DNA from: Candidatus Woesearchaeota archaeon
GTDB taxonomy: Archaea; Nanobdellota; Nanobdellia; SCGC-AAA011-G17; CAYFGV01
Direction of reading: 5' to 3'
DNA length: 64,000 bases
Assembly: GCA_964452525.1 (NCBI GenBank)
Contig: CAYVLZ010000001.1
Coordinates: forward strand, 65,742 to 129,741
Shown in pieces: positions 13,848 through 63,679 of this stretch. A program made the translations under genes and the position numbers. The notes under the pieces were generated by a model. That model saw only the letters and a list, made by a program, of their open reading frames with translations. It did no database searches and had not been told where the DNA came from. Position 1 is the stretch's first letter. Every line of letters begins with the position of its first letter.

Positions 13848-15056
13848 CCAGAGAAGACGTAGTTTTCAAGGCAACATCTCCTCTGGCTATGGAGTCCGGA
13901 ATGAACCCCACAATCATAAATAAGACAAAGGAATTTAATAAACCTTCTCCTAATCTGAAGTCCAAAGAGATAAAGAGAATTACAAAACTTCTCAAAAAGA
14001 AAGTCTATCCTTCAATAAATCTGAAGATGCATCATAATTCAAAGTATTCTGAAACAGATTTCCTTGATCTCTTAACTTATATTGCAATAACTCATGACTT
14101 TACAAATAATGGATCAAAAACATTTGAACTGCTTAAAGAAAACACACCAGCATCAAGCACCGTTATCCATCATATCAAAAAGCTTGATTCTGAATATGTT
14201 GAAAAACTATTCATGAAAACATTTGATAAATTCATTAAAGAGGCTACAAAATACAAACCATTCAGAAAAAGAGTTGATTTGGCTATTGATATTACAGAGC
14301 AAATGTATTATGGAGATAAAAATGATTACATGGTTTGCGAGACAAAACCCAAAGACGGGACTTCTCACTGCTTTAGGTATATAACAATAAATGTGGTTGA
14401 AAATGGAAAAAGATTCACTTTATTGGCTTTGCCAATGCACAAATTTACAACAAAGGCAAAAGTTGTAAGAAAATTAATAGAATATGCAAAATCAAAAGTA
14501 AAAATAAGGCATGTTTATCTTGACAGAGGATTCTTCAATTCCGAAATAATTAATCTCCTAAAAGAGTTAAGAGTTAGATTTCTAATGCCTGCTATCAGGA
14601 ATATAAAAATACAAAGATTCATGAGGGAATACAAGGAGATACAATCAAAGATTATCGATTATGATATGGGCTATAGGGAATATAACAGAGCAGAGTTTAA
14701 GCTTGTTTTCGTTGACGATAAACAAGGAACTAAAAGAGTATTTGCAACCAATATTCCGATAGCAGAAGAATTGGCACATCAGTTCTTTTCTTTATATTCA
14801 AAGAGATGGGGTATTGAAACATCTTACAGAGTCAAAGGAGACTTCAAAGCAAGAACAACATCAAAATATTATTCGGTGAGATTATTCTATTTCATGTGGT
14901 CTGTTTGTTTGTATAATATTTGGGTTTTAGTTAGTTTAGTTGTGGCAGTTATTTTTCATATTGATCTAAAGAAACCATTAGTTACTGCTAAATTATTCGG
15001 AGCAGTTCTTTATTCTTCAGAGCCAAGAGGAATAACCTAACTTAGCGTGAGATCTC
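13848..15056. mobile_element. Putative IS element (IS4/ISH3 group) carrying one transposase gene
   Basis: DDE transposase ORF 13889-15040. Weak imperfect terminal inverted repeats (left GAGAAGACGTAGTT..., right reverse-complement GAGATCTCACGCTAAGTT...). Boundaries approximate. Confidence 0.4.
13889..15040 (+). CDS. DDE transposase, IS4/ISH3 family
   Basis: 383 aa. YLDRGFF (second D) and the C-terminal RWGIETSYRVKGDFKAR (E/K of the YREK signature) are typical of IS4-group transposases. Confidence 0.7.
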   Translation: MESGMNPTIINKTKEFNKPSPNLKSKEIKRITKLLKKKVYPSINLKMHHNSKYSETDFLDLLTYIAITHDFTNNGSKTFELLKENTPASSTVIHHIKKLDSEYVEKLFMKTFDKFIKEATKYKPFRKRVDLAIDITEQMYYGDKNDYMVCETKPKDGTSHCFRYITINVVENGKRFTLLALPMHKFTTKAKVVRKLIEYAKSKVKIRHVYLDRGFFNSEIINLLKELRVRFLMPAIRNIKIQRFMREYKEIQSKIIDYDMGYREYNRAEFKLVFVDDKQGTKRVFATNIPIAEELAHQFFSLYSKRWGIETSYRVKGDFKARTTSKYYSVRLFYFMWSVCLYNIWVLVSLVVAVIFHIDLKKPLVTAKLFGAVLYSSEPRGIT

Positions 15057-15724: not shown

Positions 15725-16213
15725 TTATTTGAATTTTTCTTGGCCTAAGAAAGACTTCGCTTTATTAAATATATCATAGGTTTGTTCTTTTAATCCTTTT
15801 TCGTATTTTGATGAAGACGAGGTGTGAATAAATTTATCATATATGCCCCTTATGAATTTCGCTACTGGCCTTTCCCATTTTTCTTCATAATCTGTTTCTA
15901 AGTAAGATTCGAATACAATCTTTATTTCTCCAGATTGGATTTTTCCTTTTTTGCTGTCTAGTTTTTCAATATCAGATCCAGTAAGAGTTAAATTGATATT
16001 GAATTTTGTGTAATCATCTACTTCTTTCATAGATTCCCATCTGATACTGAAATCTTTTGTTCCTGGTTTTAGCACATCTTTGTAATCTTTTTCTAGTAAA
16101 CTATAACCATTAACATCGAACCATTTATTTAAGGTTTTATAGAATTCTGATAAGTCAAATTTTCCCTTGTGAGTTAATTTTAATTTTGATACTATATAAT
16201 CTATGTTGCTCAT
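15725..16213 (-). CDS. Uncharacterised ~165-aa protein, paralog 1 of a tandem triplicated family
   Basis: Shares KGxFDxxxLYxxLxxWF...EKxYxxxxKxxxxxxxIxWxxxxxVxDYxKFNIxIxF...W...LH spacing with the ORFs at 16516-17034 and 17073-17567. Confidence 0.5.
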   Translation of the reverse strand: MSNIDYIVSKLKLTHKGKFDLSEFYKTLNKWFDVNGYSLLEKDYKDVLKPGTKDFSIRWESMKEVDDYTKFNINLTLTGSDIEKLDSKKGKIQSGEIKIVFESYLETDYEEKWERPVAKFIRGIYDKFIHTSSSSKYEKGLKEQTYDIFNKAKSFLGQEKFK

Positions 16214-16250
16214 TAAATTAGTAAGATATGAGGTTTAATAAATATTTTGG

Positions 16251-16484
16251 TTATTTATTTTTCTCTATTTTTATGCAGCTTGCTGGGCATACATTAGAAG
16301 CTTCTTTTATTGAATCTATGTCATCTGTTTCTAGGACTTCCTTTCCATTATCATCTTTAGCTCCTTTAAGATGTGCTTTGAATCCAGAATCTTCTTTTAA
16401 TTCAAAGTATTCTGGACAGACAGAAGCGCAAGCTCCACAGCCCATACATTCTTTTGTATCGTGTATAACTTTGAATTTTGTCAT
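16251..16484 (-). CDS. 4Fe-4S ferredoxin (single-cluster, Pyrococcus-type)
   Basis: 77 aa. CMGCGACASVCP ... CPASC cysteine pattern. Confidence 0.85.
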   Translation of the reverse strand: MTKFKVIHDTKECMGCGACASVCPEYFELKEDSGFKAHLKGAKDDNGKEVLETDDIDSIKEASNVCPASCIKIEKNK

Positions 16485-16515
16485 GGCTAGAAAATAATTA
16501 GCTTATATAAATAGT

Positions 16516-17034
16516 TTACTGAAATCTATGGAGATCCAACATTGCTTTTATCTCATCTCGGAAATTATATGTCATTTCGTATAAATCTATCGTGTTTTGT
16601 TCTATTCTGTCTTTGATTATGTAGCTTTCATATATCTTTTTCATTAAACCATCTTTTTTCCATTTTCCTTGTCTATTTGTTACTAGATGTGCTGAAAATC
16701 TCATTTCTATCTCTCCAGTATTCTTACCTATTTGTTTTCCATCTTCTTCCACTTTGATATCTTTTAAACCTAAAGCAAAGAAAGTTATGGTTATTACATA
16801 ACTGAAATAATCGTTAATTATTTTTTCCCCTTTCCATCTTATCTCTATTTGTTTAGAATCTCCTTTTAATCTTTGAACATATTTCTCTTCTTTAAATGAG
16901 GAATTTTCATCTCCGAAACCATAGAAATCTAACCAGAATTTCATCTTTTGGTAGAGATCATCGAAATCAAAAATACCTTTCCATTTTAATTTAAGGCCAG
17001 AACAGACTTTGTTTTTATCTGCGTCTTTGTACAT
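16516..17034 (-). CDS. Uncharacterised ~170-aa protein, paralog 2 of the tandem family
   Basis: WKGIFDFDDLYQKMKFWLDFYGF...EKYVQRLKGDSKQIEIRW...NDYFSYVITITF aligns with paralogs 1 and 3. Confidence 0.5.
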   Translation of the reverse strand: MYKDADKNKVCSGLKLKWKGIFDFDDLYQKMKFWLDFYGFGDENSSFKEEKYVQRLKGDSKQIEIRWKGEKIINDYFSYVITITFFALGLKDIKVEEDGKQIGKNTGEIEMRFSAHLVTNRQGKWKKDGLMKKIYESYIIKDRIEQNTIDLYEMTYNFRDEIKAMLDLHRFQ

Positions 17035-17072
17035 ACAACAGATTTAGAATACAGCATTAATAAGCGTTTTGG

Positions 17073-17567
17073 TTATTTATGTAGGTCTAAGACCCATTTT
17101 GCTATGTTTTGTATTTCTGTTACTTCTTCGTATAACTTATCTTCTAATTCTATGATTTTTCCTTTTATTATGTAGTTGTTATAAATGTGGAAAAATAGAT
17201 TACTTAGAGGTTTTGCTTGCCATTTTTTTTTATAATCAAGAGTCAAATACGCGAAAGTTTTCATTTCAAAATCACCCTTGTAGATTTCTTTTCTCTGAGT
17301 TTTTACTTTATTTAGTTTTTCTAGACGGAATTTTATTTTAATGTTGAATTTAATATAATCTGTTACTTCTCTTTCTGCAATCCATTCTAACTCTATACCT
17401 CTACCCACTGGTTTTATTTTTTCTGTTTGTCCTTTTTCCTGGAAGAAATAATTTTTAGAATTAAAATAGCTCCTGAGTTTCCTCCATAGTTTGTCTGCAT
17501 CGAAAACACCTTTTTGTGTTATCCTTATGCCTGTTGGCGGTGTAACGTAATCTTCTTTATCTATCAT
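17073..17567 (-). CDS. Uncharacterised ~165-aa protein, paralog 3 of the tandem family
   Basis: QKGVFDADKLWRKLRSYF...EKGQTEKIKPVGRGIELEWIAEREVTDYIKFNIKIKF aligns with paralogs 1 and 2. Confidence 0.5.
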   Translation of the reverse strand: MIDKEDYVTPPTGIRITQKGVFDADKLWRKLRSYFNSKNYFFQEKGQTEKIKPVGRGIELEWIAEREVTDYIKFNIKIKFRLEKLNKVKTQRKEIYKGDFEMKTFAYLTLDYKKKWQAKPLSNLFFHIYNNYIIKGKIIELEDKLYEEVTEIQNIAKWVLDLHK

Positions 17568-25098: not shown

Positions 25099-25171
25099 AG
25101 CCCCGTAGTCTAGTGGTCAAGGATAGCGGACTTTGGATCCGTTGACGGAGGTTCGAATCCTCCCGGGGCTA
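25099..25171 (+). tRNA. tRNA-Gln (anticodon TTG)
   Basis: Cloverleaf with acceptor AGCCCCG/CGGGGCT, D-arm GUCU/GGAU, anticodon arm GCGGA-CUUUGGA-UCCGU, T-arm GGAGG-UUCGAAU-CCUCC. No encoded CCA. Confidence 0.85.
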
Positions 25172-56925: not shown

Positions 56926-57714
56926 ATGAGGAAACCTAAGATATTGGTTGGATGTCCTACATCCAGTTTGTATGATTATTGTTTAGAACCTTATATTGAC
57001 TGTGTTAAGAATTTATCTTATGAAAATTTTGATGTTATGTTGGTAGACAATAGTAAGAACAAATGGTATTATGATAAAATTAAGAAACTTGGTTTAAATG
57101 TTATAAAAGACCAATGGCAAAAAAATGCTAGAGATAGAATAATAGGTGGTAGAAATCTTTTGAGAGAATATTGTTTAGAGAATGGATATGATTATTTCTT
57201 TAGTTTGGAGCAAGATGTTATTTGTCCAAAAGACTCGATTGAAAGATTATTAAATTGGAAAAAGAAAATTGTTAGTGGTTTATATTGTGGAACGTTTAGA
57301 TCTGTACTCAATCCAAAAGAGATTAAGATTCTACCTTTAGTTTATCAACATATAGATAAGAAAACCTATGAGAAAATGTTAACTCATAATAATTTTAAAG
57401 ATAGTAAGATTAGGAAGGAAGTGGAGGAAGGTAAAATTAAATCGTATAAAGATGTAATGAGACAATGTGAATTAAAAGAAGTAAAAGATAAAGGCTTGAT
57501 GAAGGTCTGGATTTCTGGTGTTGGTTGTTTAATGATTCATAGGGACGTTTTAGAGAAAATAAAATTTAGATATGATAAAGAAGCTGAAGGTTTTGATGAT
57601 GTGTTCTTTTGTAAGGATGCAGAAAAAAATGGTTTTGAAGTCTTTGTTGATACTTCTATACATTGTAAGCACTATAGTAAGAAATCTTGGGATTGGAGAG
57701 ATATAAGGTTATAG
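56926..57714 (+). CDS. Putative glycosyltransferase (GT-A-like) / hypothetical
   Basis: VLVDNSKN and EQD acidic motifs in a 262-aa soluble protein. Weak assignment. Confidence 0.35.
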   Translation: MRKPKILVGCPTSSLYDYCLEPYIDCVKNLSYENFDVMLVDNSKNKWYYDKIKKLGLNVIKDQWQKNARDRIIGGRNLLREYCLENGYDYFFSLEQDVICPKDSIERLLNWKKKIVSGLYCGTFRSVLNPKEIKILPLVYQHIDKKTYEKMLTHNNFKDSKIRKEVEEGKIKSYKDVMRQCELKEVKDKGLMKVWISGVGCLMIHRDVLEKIKFRYDKEAEGFDDVFFCKDAEKNGFEVFVDTSIHCKHYSKKSWDWRDIRL

Positions 57715-57750
57715 AAAATATTATAAATAAACTAGAAGCAATAATTCTAA

Positions 57751-57881
57751 GCTCCTGTAGTCTAGTCCGGCCAAGGATGCAGTTGCTTTGCAGCAGAACC
57801 CTTTCGAGTAAGCTTTTTAGGAAAAGCTTAACCAAAAATCGAAGAAAGGCTGAGACCCGGGTTCAAATCCCGGCAGGAGCA
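57751..57881 (+). tRNA. tRNA-Glu (anticodon TTC) with two intervening segments (about 16 nt before and about 40 nt after the anticodon loop)
   Basis: Acceptor GCUCCUG/CAGGAGC+A. D-loop AGUCCGGCCAAGGAU and T-arm GACCCGGGUUCAAAUCCCGG are characteristic of archaeal tRNA-Glu. Loop CUUUCGA at 57801-57807. The anticodon stem CAGUU/GGCUG forms only after removing 57785-57800 and 57808-57847. Confidence 0.55.
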
Positions 57882-59157: not shown

Positions 59158-59775
59158 TAAGCTTTATATATAAGTCTGCTTCTTAAATCGTTACCTCATG
59201 AGGGAGATAGTGTTTTTATCTTCTAATAAATTTTCTTTGAGGGTAATTTATGAATACTTGATGTTTTATTAAGTATGATGTACAGACCTAGTAAGATAGT
59301 AGAGTTTCCTGCTAACTTTTTTTGCGATCACAATAATTCCCGTTGATCCTGCGGGAGGTTGCTGCTATTCGGATTCGACTTAGCCATGCAAGTCAGGGAG
59401 CTTCGGCTGCCGGCGTAAGGCTCAGTAACACGTAGTTAACTTACCCTTAGATCCAGGATAACCTCTGGGAAACTGAGGATAATACTGGATAAGGAATTGT
59501 TGCTGGAAGGCACTTTTCCTCAAAAGTAATGTCTAAGGATAGGACTGCGGCTGATTAGATTGTTGGTGAGGTAATGGCTCACCAAGTCTGGGATCAGTAG
59601 GGGGGATGAGAGTCCTAGCCCCGAGAAGGGCACTGAGAAACTGGCCCTAGTCCTAAGGGATGCAGCAGGCGCGAAACCTTTACAATGCACGAAAGTGTGA
59701 TAAGGGGATCCGAAGTGCTTTGCCTTTGGTAAAGCTTTTGTCAAGTGTAAATAGCTTGAAGAATAAGGAGTGGGT

Positions 59776-59809
<34 letters not shown>

Positions 59810-60192
59810 CTCCAAGTGGCAACCGTTTTTATTGGGTCTAAAGCGTCCGTAGCCGGTTTAGCAAATCTTTTGTGAAATTGTTCTGCTTAACAGAACAGCG
59901 TGCAAGAGACACTGTTGAACTTGGAACCGGGAGGGGATAGAAGTATTCTTTGGGGAGCGGTAAAATGCTATAATCCTTGGAAGACTACCTATGGCGAAGG
60001 CATCTATCCAGAACGGGTTCGACGGTGAGGGACGAAGGCTGGGGGAGCGAACAGGATTAGATACCCTGGTAGTCCCAGCAGTAAACGCTGCGAGCTGGGT
60101 GACGCGTGTTCTTCGAGGACATGCGGTGCCTAAGTGAAGACGTTAAGCTCGCCACCTGGGAAGTATGATCGCAAGATTGAAACTTAAAGGAA

Positions 60193-60828
60193 AGAGACTA
60201 AGAAGAAAACTATAAAAGGAATAAGATCCACTAATTACTATGGATAACAGTAAACTTTGTTATATATTGGGAGCATTGAGAGATTCAAGCATCGACATCA
60301 GGAAAGGGAAAAATTACGAGTTAAAGTTCAGTCAAAAGGATGAAAGATGGTTGTTTTATATATCTGACTTAATCTATTGTCTTTTTGGTGAGAGATTTAA
60401 TGTAAGAAATAATATGTTGAGGATTACCAACAAAAACATTGTATTAGAGATTCAAAATGTTTCAGAAATGGTTTCTCCACAAAAGTATTGGAAGACACCA
60501 TCTTTTGTTTTTAAGTTAGATGTTCTGGATTTAATTCCTTATATTCAAGGTTTCTGGGATGCTGAAGGTGGTTTACCTAGAAAACCTTTGATTGCTAAAC
60601 AGAAATATTTGTCTTTTGATCAGAAAAACAAACAATGTTTGTTTTTCTTGAGAACAAAATTGCTAAAGTTGGGATATAGACCAACAAACCTGACTTTTAC
60701 TAACCATGTTTGGCAATTTCGATTGACAAGAAAAAATGATATAATAAGTTATATTCAAAATATAGGTTCTTCACATCCCGAGAAATCTTCTCGAATGTTA
60801 AAAATGATTTCTTCTTTGTCTCCCTGAT
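60193..60828 (+). other. 16S rRNA intron 1 (~636 nt) inserted after AAAGGAA (E. coli ~position 908-915)
   Basis: Universal AAACUUAAAGGAAUUGGCGGGGGAGCAC is split at GGAA|UUGG by a 636-nt insert carrying a LAGLIDADG ORF. Confidence 0.75.
60240..60827 (+). CDS. LAGLIDADG homing endonuclease (16S intron-encoded)
   Basis: Two LAGLIDADG-type motifs: LCYILGALRDSS and YIQGFWDAEGG. The stop codon abuts the 3' splice site. Confidence 0.8.
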   Translation: MDNSKLCYILGALRDSSIDIRKGKNYELKFSQKDERWLFYISDLIYCLFGERFNVRNNMLRITNKNIVLEIQNVSEMVSPQKYWKTPSFVFKLDVLDLIPYIQGFWDAEGGLPRKPLIAKQKYLSFDQKNKQCLFFLRTKLLKLGYRPTNLTFTNHVWQFRLTRKNDIISYIQNIGSSHPEKSSRMLKMISSLSP

Positions 60829-61112
60829 TTGGCGGGGGCTCACCACAAGGAGTGGAGCGTGCGGTTTAATTGGATTCTACACCGGAAATCTCACCAGGAG
60901 CGATGGCAGGATGAAGGTCAGATTGAAGGTCTTACCTAACAGGCCAAGAGGAGGTGCATGGCCGCCGTCAGTTCGTGCCGTGAGGTATCATGCTAAGCCA
61001 TGCAACGAACGAGACCCATGCCTGTATTTGCTAACAGGTTTTTATGACTGAGCACAATACAGGGACCGCCTTCGAAAGGAGGAGGAAGGTGTGGGCAACG
61101 GTAGGTCAGTAT

Positions 61113-61173
61113 ACGCTGGAGCTTTCCTATTCATTCCAATGAATTGTGTGCTTATGTTAGCTTAGCGGCTAAA
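61113..61173 (+). other. 16S rRNA intron 2 (~61 nt, no ORF) between GGUAGGUCAGUAU and GCCCCGAAUCUCCUGGGCUACACGCG
   Basis: The conserved ~1210 region is interrupted by ACGCUGGAGCUUUCCUAUUCAUUCCAAUGAAUUGUGUGCUUAUGUUAGCUUAGCGGCUAAA. Boundaries ±3 nt. Confidence 0.5.
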
Positions 61174-61540
61174 GCCCCGAATCTCCTGGGCTACACGCGC
61201 GCAACAATGGTAAGGACAATGGGTCGCAACTCCGAAAGGAGAAGCCAATCCTCGAAACCTTGCCCTAGTTCGGATTGAGGACTGTAACTTGTTCTCATGA
61301 CGCTGGAATTCCTAGTAATCGGGTTTCATTATGGCCCGGTGAACATGTCCCTGAGCCTTGCACACACTGCCCGTCAAATCAACCGAGCAGGGTCTAGGTG
61401 AGGATTAATTTTTTGGTTAATTCGAACCTAGGTTCAGTAAGGTGGGTTAAGTCGTCACAAGGTAACCGTAGGGGAACCTGCTGTTGGATCACCTCCTTTT
61501 ATTTTTGAAGCTTTACTATACTAGAAGGTCTGTACTTTAT

Positions 61541-63010: not shown

Positions 63011-63679
63011 GTTGTTTACTAGCGATAACTTTATATAATCAGATGACTTAGAATACTATGCAGCTCACCTGTGATTTAGCTTATTTGCTTGGAGCTTTGA
63101 GAGACGGAACAGTCACAAGATATAAAGAAAAGAATAAAACACATAGTCATGTGACGTTCTATAGTAAAGACATTGAATGGTTAACATATCTACAGAAACT
63201 GTTTAATAAAGTTTTTCAAGAGGAGCTAAAAGTGAATAAGCCCAAAGGTGGTACAGCATATATACGAAAGTATTCTAAGGAACTCGTTAATCTTTTAGAA
63301 AAAAGATTTCAACATCCTGTTGGGAAACAGATAAAGTGGGAAACTCCAGATTCTTTGTTAAAATCTAGTAACAAAAAAATTTGGGCAAGTTATATTTCAG
63401 GTTTCTTCGATGCAGAAGGAGGGACAATTCCAGGAAGACAAATTATTTTTTACTTGTCAGGGGATGGAGAAAGATGCCCAGTTTTAGAAGACATTAAGAA
63501 GAAATTAAAAAGTATGTTTGACATTGATAGCGGAAAGGTAAGAGGATATGAAAATAAAAATGGAGTTTATCCTAGATTCTGTTTAAGGATAGCGAGTAAG
63601 AGAAGTAGAGCTTTATTTTGTGAGCATATAAAGCTTCATAATCCTAGTAAGATAATTAGGCTAGTAAACAGCCGCTAGA
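63011..63679 (+). other. 23S rRNA intron (~669 nt) inserted in the conserved GCGUAA|UAGCUCAC helix region (E. coli ~1090)
   Basis: Conserved sequence is split; flanking duplicated AGCUCACCUGU segments (intron 5' region and exon 2) are consistent with a BHB intron. Confidence 0.7.
63058..63678 (+). CDS. LAGLIDADG homing endonuclease (23S intron-encoded)
   Basis: LAYLLGALRDGTV and YISGFFDAEGG motifs. Clearly paralogous to the 16S intron ORF. The stop codon abuts the 3' splice site. Confidence 0.8.
   Translation: MQLTCDLAYLLGALRDGTVTRYKEKNKTHSHVTFYSKDIEWLTYLQKLFNKVFQEELKVNKPKGGTAYIRKYSKELVNLLEKRFQHPVGKQIKWETPDSLLKSSNKKIWASYISGFFDAEGGTIPGRQIIFYLSGDGERCPVLEDIKKKLKSMFDIDSGKVRGYENKNGVYPRFCLRIASKRSRALFCEHIKLHNPSKIIRLVNSR

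Follow-up and report, generated by a model that had tools for sequence, protein, structure and literature searches.

In a stretch of DNA of 64,000 nt (hereafter the window), one tRNA gene raises the question of how a tRNA could be made when its anticodon is set apart on a very short internal exon, and of where exactly the exons end. A sequence-only reading had proposed a tRNA-Glu(UUC) here, with its anticodon loop on a 7-nt exon, a first intron of 16 nt at position 31/32 and a second of about 40 nt, or alternatively a single rearranged BHB. Archaeal tRNA genes can have up to three BHB introns each, and non-canonical intron positions are well documented (PMC3239211, PMC4033280). Where such introns lie very close together, the second BHB can in some cases form only after one of them has been excised (tRNAscan-SE 2.0 paper, PMC8450103). 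Kaneta et al. 2018 reported that disruption of tRNA genes is marked and increased in DPANN lineages, with a Woesearchaeota genome among them, linked this disruption to an EndA of the alpha4 form with an L3 loop, and considered that disrupted tRNA genes probably remain to be identified (PMC5829648). For the present locus, our preferred reading is a functional tRNA-Glu(UUC) gene with two protein-spliced BHB introns, one of 16 nt at 29/30 and one of 40 nt at 37/38, to which we assign a probability of about 0.85.

Identity of the gene and its host

The window is low-GC archaeal DNA with archaeal SSU and LSU rRNA and SRP RNA genes. A neighbouring YchF-type GTPase has its best matches in MAGs labelled Woesearchaeota or Nanoarchaeota, the best non-self match being 72% identical. 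On these matches, the host of the tRNA-Glu gene is a DPANN archaeon of the Woesearchaeota/Nanoarchaeota type.

The Rfam tRNA model matched the gene end to end (model positions 1-71) with 40.5 bits against a gathering score of 29, giving exactly the boundaries that had been read by eye (Table 1). This is the lowest Rfam score among the tRNAs of the window, and the match includes an unaligned block of 67 nt within the anticodon arm. Reading the arms from the sequence yields an acceptor stem of 7 bp (GCUCCUG/CAGGAGC), a D-arm of the form GUCU-AGUCCGGCCAA-GGAU, a 4-nt variable loop (AGAC), a T-arm CCGGG-UUCAAAU-CCCGG and the discriminator base A73. The heptamer CUUUCGA is present at 57801..57807, as the sequence-only reading had it, and the approximately 56 surplus nucleotides form one block of 16 nt on the 5' side of the anticodon loop and another of 40 nt on its 3' side. 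The assignment of the D-loop and T-arm to the tRNA-Glu type also held. Species-representative genomes were scanned for genes that combine D- and T-loops of the tRNA-Glu type with an excess of 31-61 nt, and this pattern returned at least 119 archaeal matches, nearly all of which were tRNA-Glu.

The gene was missed by ARAGORN in its default mode. When introns were allowed, of which ARAGORN handles one only, its sole call was a tRNA-Gln(UUG) in which an intron of 36 nt is combined with a very long variable arm. Such an arm would be unexpected, since tRNA-Gln belongs to class I and has no long variable arm. Both the D-loop and the T-arm indicate tRNA-Glu instead, the window has a normal tRNA-Gln(UUG) gene at 25099..25171, and the fold is not conserved in the relatives described below. 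We give this call next to no chance, the comparative data having effectively refuted it. On the reverse strand of the locus, Rfam gave noise-level matches only (SmY, mir-208), which are due to the hairpin in the second intron.

Upstream of the gene lies a BRE/TATA-like element (Table 1). Elements of the type GAAA-N-TTTAAATA are likewise found at an equal distance upstream of the tRNA-Ile, tRNA-Gln, tRNA-Thr and tRNA-Leu genes of the window. This promoter-like element argues that the tRNA-Glu gene is expressed.

Table 1. Positions in the window of the tRNA-Glu(UUC) gene, its parts and the other features discussed.
Feature	Positions	Strand	Description
BRE/TATA-like element GAAAATATTATAAAT	57714..57728	+	-37..-23 from the tRNA-Glu start; read from sequence; putative promoter function
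tRNA-Glu(UUC), whole gene	57751..57881	+	precursor body of 131 nt; CCA not encoded; Rfam RF00005
Exon 1	57751..57782	+	32 nt; Sprinzl 1-29 (acceptor 5' strand, D-arm, G26, C27 A28 G29); BHB scan
Intron 1, UUGCUUUGCAGCAGAA	57783..57798	+	16 nt; non-canonical, Sprinzl 29/30, in the 5' strand of the anticodon stem; BHB scan
Exon 2, micro-exon CCCUUUCG	57799..57806	+	8 nt; positions 30-37; bounded by both BHB splice sites
Intron 2	57807..57846	+	40 nt; canonical, 37/38; internal 9-bp hairpin 57809-57817 / 57822-57830
Exon 3	57847..57881	+	35 nt; positions 38-73 (A38, GGCUG 39-43, AGAC, T-arm, acceptor 3' strand, A73); sequence and Rfam alignment
tRNA-Thr(UGU)	35102..35626	+	453-nt intron at canonical 37/38; hinted at by ARAGORN, confirmed by BHB scan; missed by Rfam
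tRNA-Thr intron ORF	35193..35591	+	132 aa; full-length Pfam PF11645 PDDEXK_5, E 7.7e-22; PD-(D/E)XK endonuclease
tRNA-Val(GAC)	35629..35733	+	2 nt downstream of tRNA-Thr; two non-canonical introns, no canonical one
LAGLIDADG_3 ORF within 16S	60240..60827		about 200 aa; E 0.003; 16S at 59336..61497
LAGLIDADG_3 ORF within 23S	63058..63678		about 200 aa; E 1.5e-7; 23S from 61863
DDE transposase ORF	13889..15040	+	PF01609, E 4.5e-10
Run of three ORFs	15725..17567	-	162-172 aa each; near the transposase ORF; no Pfam match

Two BHB motifs and the exon boundaries

In archaeal BHB motifs, each strand contributes four nucleotides to the central helix and then a 3-nt bulge, in which the cut follows the second base; this core lies between an outer and an inner helix. 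All splice-site pairs of the Glu precursor were scanned for this geometry, with the tRNA-Ile(UAU), tRNA-Leu(UAA) and tRNA-Thr(UGU) genes of the window as positive controls; the canonical 37/38 site ranked first in all three. For tRNA-Glu, the top BHB of this unbiased scan was at 29/30, with the cuts after gene base 32 and before gene base 49. A second BHB was found at 37/38. Two separate introns of 16 and 40 nt around an anticodon on a micro-exon had been anticipated in the sequence-only reading, and the search for two BHB motifs that it called for finds both; with two independent BHBs present, its alternative of a single rearranged BHB finds no support.

The first motif (BHB-1) has a 4-bp outer helix, AAGG (57773-57776) with CCUU (57800-57803), and a central helix of AUGC (57777-57780) with GCAG (57793-57796), comprising three base pairs and one A*G. 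Its bulges are AG|U and AA|C, and the inner helix of 3 bp belongs to a UGC-UUU-GCA hairpin. This is a relaxed form of BHB that shows the features defining the class, namely two 3-nt bulges, a 4-bp helix position and flanking helices. The A*G is at the first central-helix pair, where 8 of the 10 aligned sequences described below have A-U. Neither 30/31 nor 31/32 gave a BHB for intron 1 in the splice-site scan of the precursor.

The second motif (BHB-2) pairs CUUU (57801-57804) with GAAG (57841-57844) in its central helix, where a single G-U stands beside three Watson-Crick pairs. Its two bulges, CG|A and AA|A, are followed by an inner G-C pair and then the hairpin. As expected of a canonical site, bases 32-35 pair with the 3' end of the intron and the bulges are of 3 nt. 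The outer helix is 2 bp while intron 1 is present and becomes 5 bp once intron 1 has been removed. Registers 36/37 and 38/39 were tried for intron 2, and the BHB was absent or worse than at 37/38. The exon drawing of the sequence-only reading had implied 38/39, where no BHB forms; as an A flanks both sides, 37/38 and 38/39 give an identical mature sequence.

Removal of both introns leaves a canonical cloverleaf of 75 nt with an all-Watson-Crick anticodon stem (CAGCC/GGCUG) and a 7-nt loop, CUUUCGA, with U33 and the anticodon UUC. The micro-exon, as bounded by the BHB splice sites, has 8 nt rather than the 7 nt first drawn: C30, C31, C32, U33, the anticodon U34 U35 C36, and G37. ARAGORN calls this product tRNA-Glu(ttc), in agreement with the identity originally read. 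As a test of register ARAGORN was discarded, all three candidate spliced products being called tRNA-Glu. The plain MFE fold of the precursor was of no use for the exon boundaries either; in this fold the D-loop captures the 3' strand of the anticodon stem, so that neither a cloverleaf nor a BHB forms.

The originally proposed arrangement, with intron 1 at 31/32, CUUUCGA as a 7-nt middle exon and a CAGUU/GGCUG stem with two G-U pairs, can be drawn on paper, since the pairing is formally possible in the window sequence, and ARAGORN also calls its product tRNA-Glu(ttc). But at this register 0 of 4 central-helix pairs form and both the outer and the inner helix are missing, and the cloverleaf of the product has a worse energy (-23.6 vs -28.1 kcal/mol). 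We therefore place the splice site two bases away from the one first proposed and regard 31/32, which also fails in the relatives (below), as highly improbable.

The statistical weight of the motifs was estimated by shuffling. With the splice sites fixed, the observed BHB score was reached by 113 of 20000 shuffles of intron 1 and by 940 of 20000 shuffles of intron 2. Because a BHB of equal score arose somewhere in 105 of 300 fully shuffled precursors, a BHB motif alone is weak evidence. The support for BHB-1 comes, at the level of sequence, from its exact position, at which excision restores the canonical anticodon arm, and from covariation in relatives.

Conservation and covariation of the 29/30 intron in relatives

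A scan of metagenomes in which both an insertion 5' of the loop and a 3' intron were required yielded 13 contigs with nine distinct sequences of the same layout. All nine contain a BHB with its 5' cut after base 32. The 29/30 intron is thus common to ten other distinct genes, namely these nine and one from a Micrarchaeota MAG (L110), a small and partly redundant set in which only L110 has a taxonomic label. In L110, the 29/30 intron is 32 nt long and is the only intron. In most relatives the intron at 37/38 ends with the same GAAG and AA. The comparison with tRNA-Glu of relatives, which the sequence-only reading had suggested, therefore shows that the two-intron layout recurs and resolves the register as 29/30.

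The closest relative, L127, has the same acceptor stem, a 16-nt intron 1 (AUGCAUUGCAGAAUAA) and a 20-nt intron 2. Its promoter region is near-identical to that of the window, with the element GAAAATGTTATAAAT.

The central helix of BHB-1 changes on both strands among the relatives. It reads AUGC/GCAG in the window gene, AUUC/GAAU in L127, AUAU/GUAU in L120, AUAC/GUAU in L121 and AUAG/CUAU in L125. The pair between position 26 and the intron is G-C, U-A or A-U, that of position 27 is C-G, G-C or U-G, and the full 4-bp helix is present in 8 of 10 aligned sequences. In the alignment of these ten sequences (A1), 96% of the cells are paired and three pairs are changed on both sides. When the partners were slid by 1-3 columns, only 28-56% of the cells were paired. 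The covariation score of 0.158, compared to 0.054 for shuffles, was reached by 0 of 500 shuffles, for a set of ten sequences of which several are close to one another and from which the BHB model was itself derived. RNAalifold, which was run without the model, recovers the outer helix, the 3-nt bulge and the central helix.

The mature anticodon stem separates the two registers. With the 29/30 model, all 11 genes have a Watson-Crick pair at 30:40 (C-G in the window and L127, G-C in the other nine), whereas the 31/32 model leaves a mismatch there in 10 of 11. Over the whole stem, 48 of 55 cells are paired under the former model vs 38 of 55 under the latter, and the dinucleotide 30-31 covaries with 39-40 over the 11 genes. 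The CAGUU/GGCUG stem first drawn is accordingly a register without a BHB; its 3' strand stands, and the predicted stem is CAGCC/GGCUG.

One mismatch occurs in the predicted mature stem of several relatives, at 27:43 (U*C or C*A) in L120, L121, L122, L128, L131 and L110, and at 28:42 (A*C) in L123. All relatives with a stem mismatch nevertheless retain the central-helix pair of the BHB between position 27 and the intron. Splicing may constrain position 27 more strongly than the mature stem does, or the 3' boundaries may be slightly off.

The genome scan for tRNA-Glu-type loops gave introns of several kinds. The combination of 29/30 and 37/38 is absent among the at least 119 matches listed; this absence means little because the window's own genome was not returned either. 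In haloarchaea, Halorubrum included, those matches have long canonical introns; in Asgard MAGs the introns are in the D-loop, and DPANN MAGs have assorted single or double introns. The nearest single-intron genes among the matches listed are L040 (Woesearchaeota), with the stem CGGCC/GGCUG, and L104 (Aenigmatarchaeota), with CAGCC/GGCUG, which is identical to the stem predicted for the window with 29/30. The GGCUG strand of exon 3 is also found in L127, L040 and L104. L114 matched the 29/30 regex and was rejected as a relative, as it carries a D-loop intron.

Several further features were seen in the raw list and in the relatives. Asgard MAGs (Promethearchaeota, Hodarchaeota and related; L005, L012, L014-L016, L021, L036, L085, L094, L095, L119 and others) have a 30-40-nt insert in tRNA-Glu directly after the D-loop, and in some, e.g. 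L036, L085, L094, L095 and L119, another insert precedes the T-stem. The tRNA-Glu(UUC) genes of Halorubrum species have in common a conserved canonical intron of about 36 nt. Among the metagenome sequences, L121/L132, L125/L129 and L122 carry a further BHB intron of 22-25 nt at 45/46, in the variable loop. L121 and L125 thereby have three introns (29/30, 37/38 and 45/46), and L122 has 29/30 and 45/46 with no canonical intron. Directly upstream of tRNA-Glu in L120, L123 and L125/L129 is the 3' end of another tRNA gene, whose anticodon loop reads GAC (Val) in L120 and L125/L129; in the window, tRNA-Val follows tRNA-Thr. This suggests a tRNA cluster in the relatives that may be co-transcribed. 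When nine neighbouring proteins of the window were searched by tblastn against the two-intron contigs L120-L132, 0 matches were obtained. With no synteny detectable, the orthology of these relatives is drawn from the tRNA sequences.

These data bear on whether the gene is a decaying pseudogene, with inserts that are junk and an uninterrupted tRNA-Glu(UUC) encoded elsewhere that the cell uses instead. The low Rfam score and the one mismatch in the BHB-1 central helix could be taken in this way; the survey of tRNA genes covered the 64-kb window, so that a second copy could lie outside it. However, the exons are intact and form a perfect cloverleaf, the promoter-like element is properly placed, and 10 other distinct genes, from two or more DPANN lineages, retain the interrupted layout and show compensatory changes. 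Interruption is moreover normal in the window, since five of its six tRNA genes are interrupted. We consider a pseudogene quite unlikely and retain the functional two-intron gene.

Order of splicing

In the established pathway, the archaeal tRNA splicing endonuclease cuts the bulge sites and an RNA ligase joins the exons. Applied to the tRNA-Glu precursor, the endonuclease would cut each 3-nt bulge after its second base, that is, after gene bases 32, 48, 56 and 96, and the ligase would join exons of 32, 8 and 35 nt. The predicted mature RNA reads ...GGAUGCAG|CCCUUUCG|AGGCUG... across the two junctions, which would correspond to GGATGCAGCCCTTTCGAGGCTGAGAC at the DNA level. Among 40 ORFs of the window that were screened, none matched the splicing endonuclease families PF01974/PF02778. 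In the class of multi-intron tRNAs, the EndA that cuts relaxed, non-canonical BHBs is of the (alpha-beta)2, epsilon2 or alpha4 with L3 loop form.

The gene, its exon boundaries, the geometry of the BHBs, their conservation with covariation and the overlap of the motifs are all evident in the sequences compared, and it is the overlap that bears on the order in which the introns might leave. BHB-1 is built from positions 31-34 on one strand and, on the other, from 20b-27 in the D-arm region, which comprise the D-stem 3' strand and 26-27. The central helix of BHB-2 takes up positions 32-35, and its outer helix is the anticodon stem, which must be assembled for this purpose. Positions 32-34 are thus shared between the two motifs, and shared nucleotides or prior removal of one intron are the marks by which sequential splicing is recognised. 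Because of the shared nucleotides, both BHBs cannot fully form at once, and splicing is therefore probably sequential. The outer helix of BHB-2 is only 2 bp in the primary transcript because intron 1 splits the 5' strand of the anticodon stem. Under constrained folding of the primary transcript, the BHB-1 conformer had an energy of -42.5 kcal/mol, the cloverleaf with BHB-2 -30.1 kcal/mol and the unconstrained optimum -46.3 kcal/mol; these are nearest-neighbour energies, which ignore protein binding. From these folding energies, intron 1 is probably removed first. The RNA would then refold to a normal cloverleaf precursor, from which intron 2 would be removed. With intron 1 leaving first, the 8-nt exon would never be free and would stay attached to a larger piece.

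The same exon structure could also be produced with the introns leaving in either order, or with intron 2 first, and no enforced sequence. BHB-1 can still form after the removal of intron 2, it is independent of intron 2 in L110 and L122, which have the 29/30 intron and lack that at 37/38, and binding of the endonuclease could stabilise the less favoured conformer. What speaks against this freedom is the outer helix of 2 bp in a conformer about 12 kcal/mol less stable than that of BHB-1, together with positions 32-34, which prevent both motifs from being presented in full at once. L110 and L122, as sequences, show only that BHB-1 works alone. A free order is possible, and we weigh it as the less likely course, behind sequential splicing with intron 1 first.

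The overlap might go further and be a selected device, imposing an obligatory order of intron 1, refolding and intron 2, protecting the 8-nt exon and maybe serving as a checkpoint for folding or modification, with 29/30 as an old feature of tRNA-Glu kept across DPANN. We regard this as doubtful. The 29/30 intron was seen in the Woesearchaeota-type genome studied here, in a Micrarchaeota MAG and in many metagenome contigs, sometimes together with a third intron at 45/46.

Relation to known disrupted tRNA genes

Archaeal genes disrupted in this manner are already familiar, and the tRNA-Glu gene reveals no new mechanism. It resembles the multi-intron tRNAs of Thermoproteales, Korarchaeum, Nanoarchaeum and ARMAN-1/2, in which close introns are spliced sequentially (PMC4033280, PMC3239211, PMC8450103), as we infer here, whereas it comes from a DPANN archaeon of the Woesearchaeota type. 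Intron 2 is a typical representative of the canonical 37/38 intron with its hBHBh' structure (Marck and Grosjean 2003, cited in PMC3239211), with 32-35 paired, 3-nt bulges and the anticodon stem as outer helix, the difference being the shortness of that helix in the primary transcript. Split and tri-split tRNAs of Nanoarchaeum equitans and Caldivirga maquilingensis (PMC4033280) likewise consist of up to three pieces with BHB-like junctions and use the same endonuclease and ligase pathway. In contrast to these, the three exons of the window gene are on one transcript in normal order, with neither trans-splicing nor permutation. Among the disrupted DPANN tRNA genes of Kaneta et al. 2018 (PMC5829648), it is a concrete, manually resolved case of the hidden genes that were predicted. 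A limited literature search found no description of a tRNA-Glu with introns at 29/30 and 37/38 and an 8-nt exon conserved across DPANN metagenomes, an absence that is not proof of novelty.

The gene adds a comparatively supported case of DPANN intron loads like those of Thermoproteales. The tRNA-Glu was missed or mistyped by ARAGORN, and tRNA-Thr and tRNA-Val were missed by Rfam; the tRNA set that automatic annotation gives for such DPANN genomes will therefore be incomplete, and this could be misread as genome reduction or host dependence. The tRNA-Glu precursor also offers a compact natural substrate for studying how the endonuclease handles overlapping BHBs and a very short internal exon.

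Other interrupted genes in the window

The six tRNA genes of the window contain seven introns in total, and tRNA-Ile and tRNA-Leu have one canonical intron each. The long intron of tRNA-Thr is bounded by a perfect hBHBh' motif with the central helix CUUG/CAAG, an outer helix of 5 bp and an inner helix of 4 bp. It contains an ORF (Table 1) whose stop codon overlaps the 3' splice site. About 30 homologues of approximately 130 aa were found, and a search of the PDB gave no sequence match. In L133, a homologue that is 70% identical is again within a tRNA-Thr(UGU) intron (903..1435 of L133), and in L134, L135 and L137 the homologue is free-standing and adjoins a tRNA-Thr(UGU) without a long intron. 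From these arrangements, the PDDEXK_5 ORF looks like a homing-endonuclease-type gene tied to tRNA-Thr and sometimes carried in a BHB intron. A brief literature search found no description of such a tRNA-Thr-associated gene.

The adjacent tRNA-Val was missed by Rfam even at E 0.05 and mis-modelled by ARAGORN. Compared to the intact tRNA-Val of L134, its D-loop is longer by an insert of 15 nt, for which the 5' cut falls after 35648 and the central helix is GUGG/CCAC. Its second insert, of 17 nt, is directly after the anticodon stem, and a UGGC/GCCA central helix identified by hand places it at 43/44.

The DDE transposase ORF of Table 1 also lies in the window, near the run of three ORFs. The rRNA genes are presumably interrupted in turn. 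The 16S spans 2162 nt compared to the 1478 positions of its model, and both it and the 23S contain a LAGLIDADG_3 ORF. These regions are presumably rRNA introns with homing endonuclease genes. They may be BHB introns, since the group I intron model had no match in the rRNA genes of the window at E 0.05. Introns with homing endonuclease genes are known from the rRNA of Woesearchaeota and other DPANN (PMC6125680).
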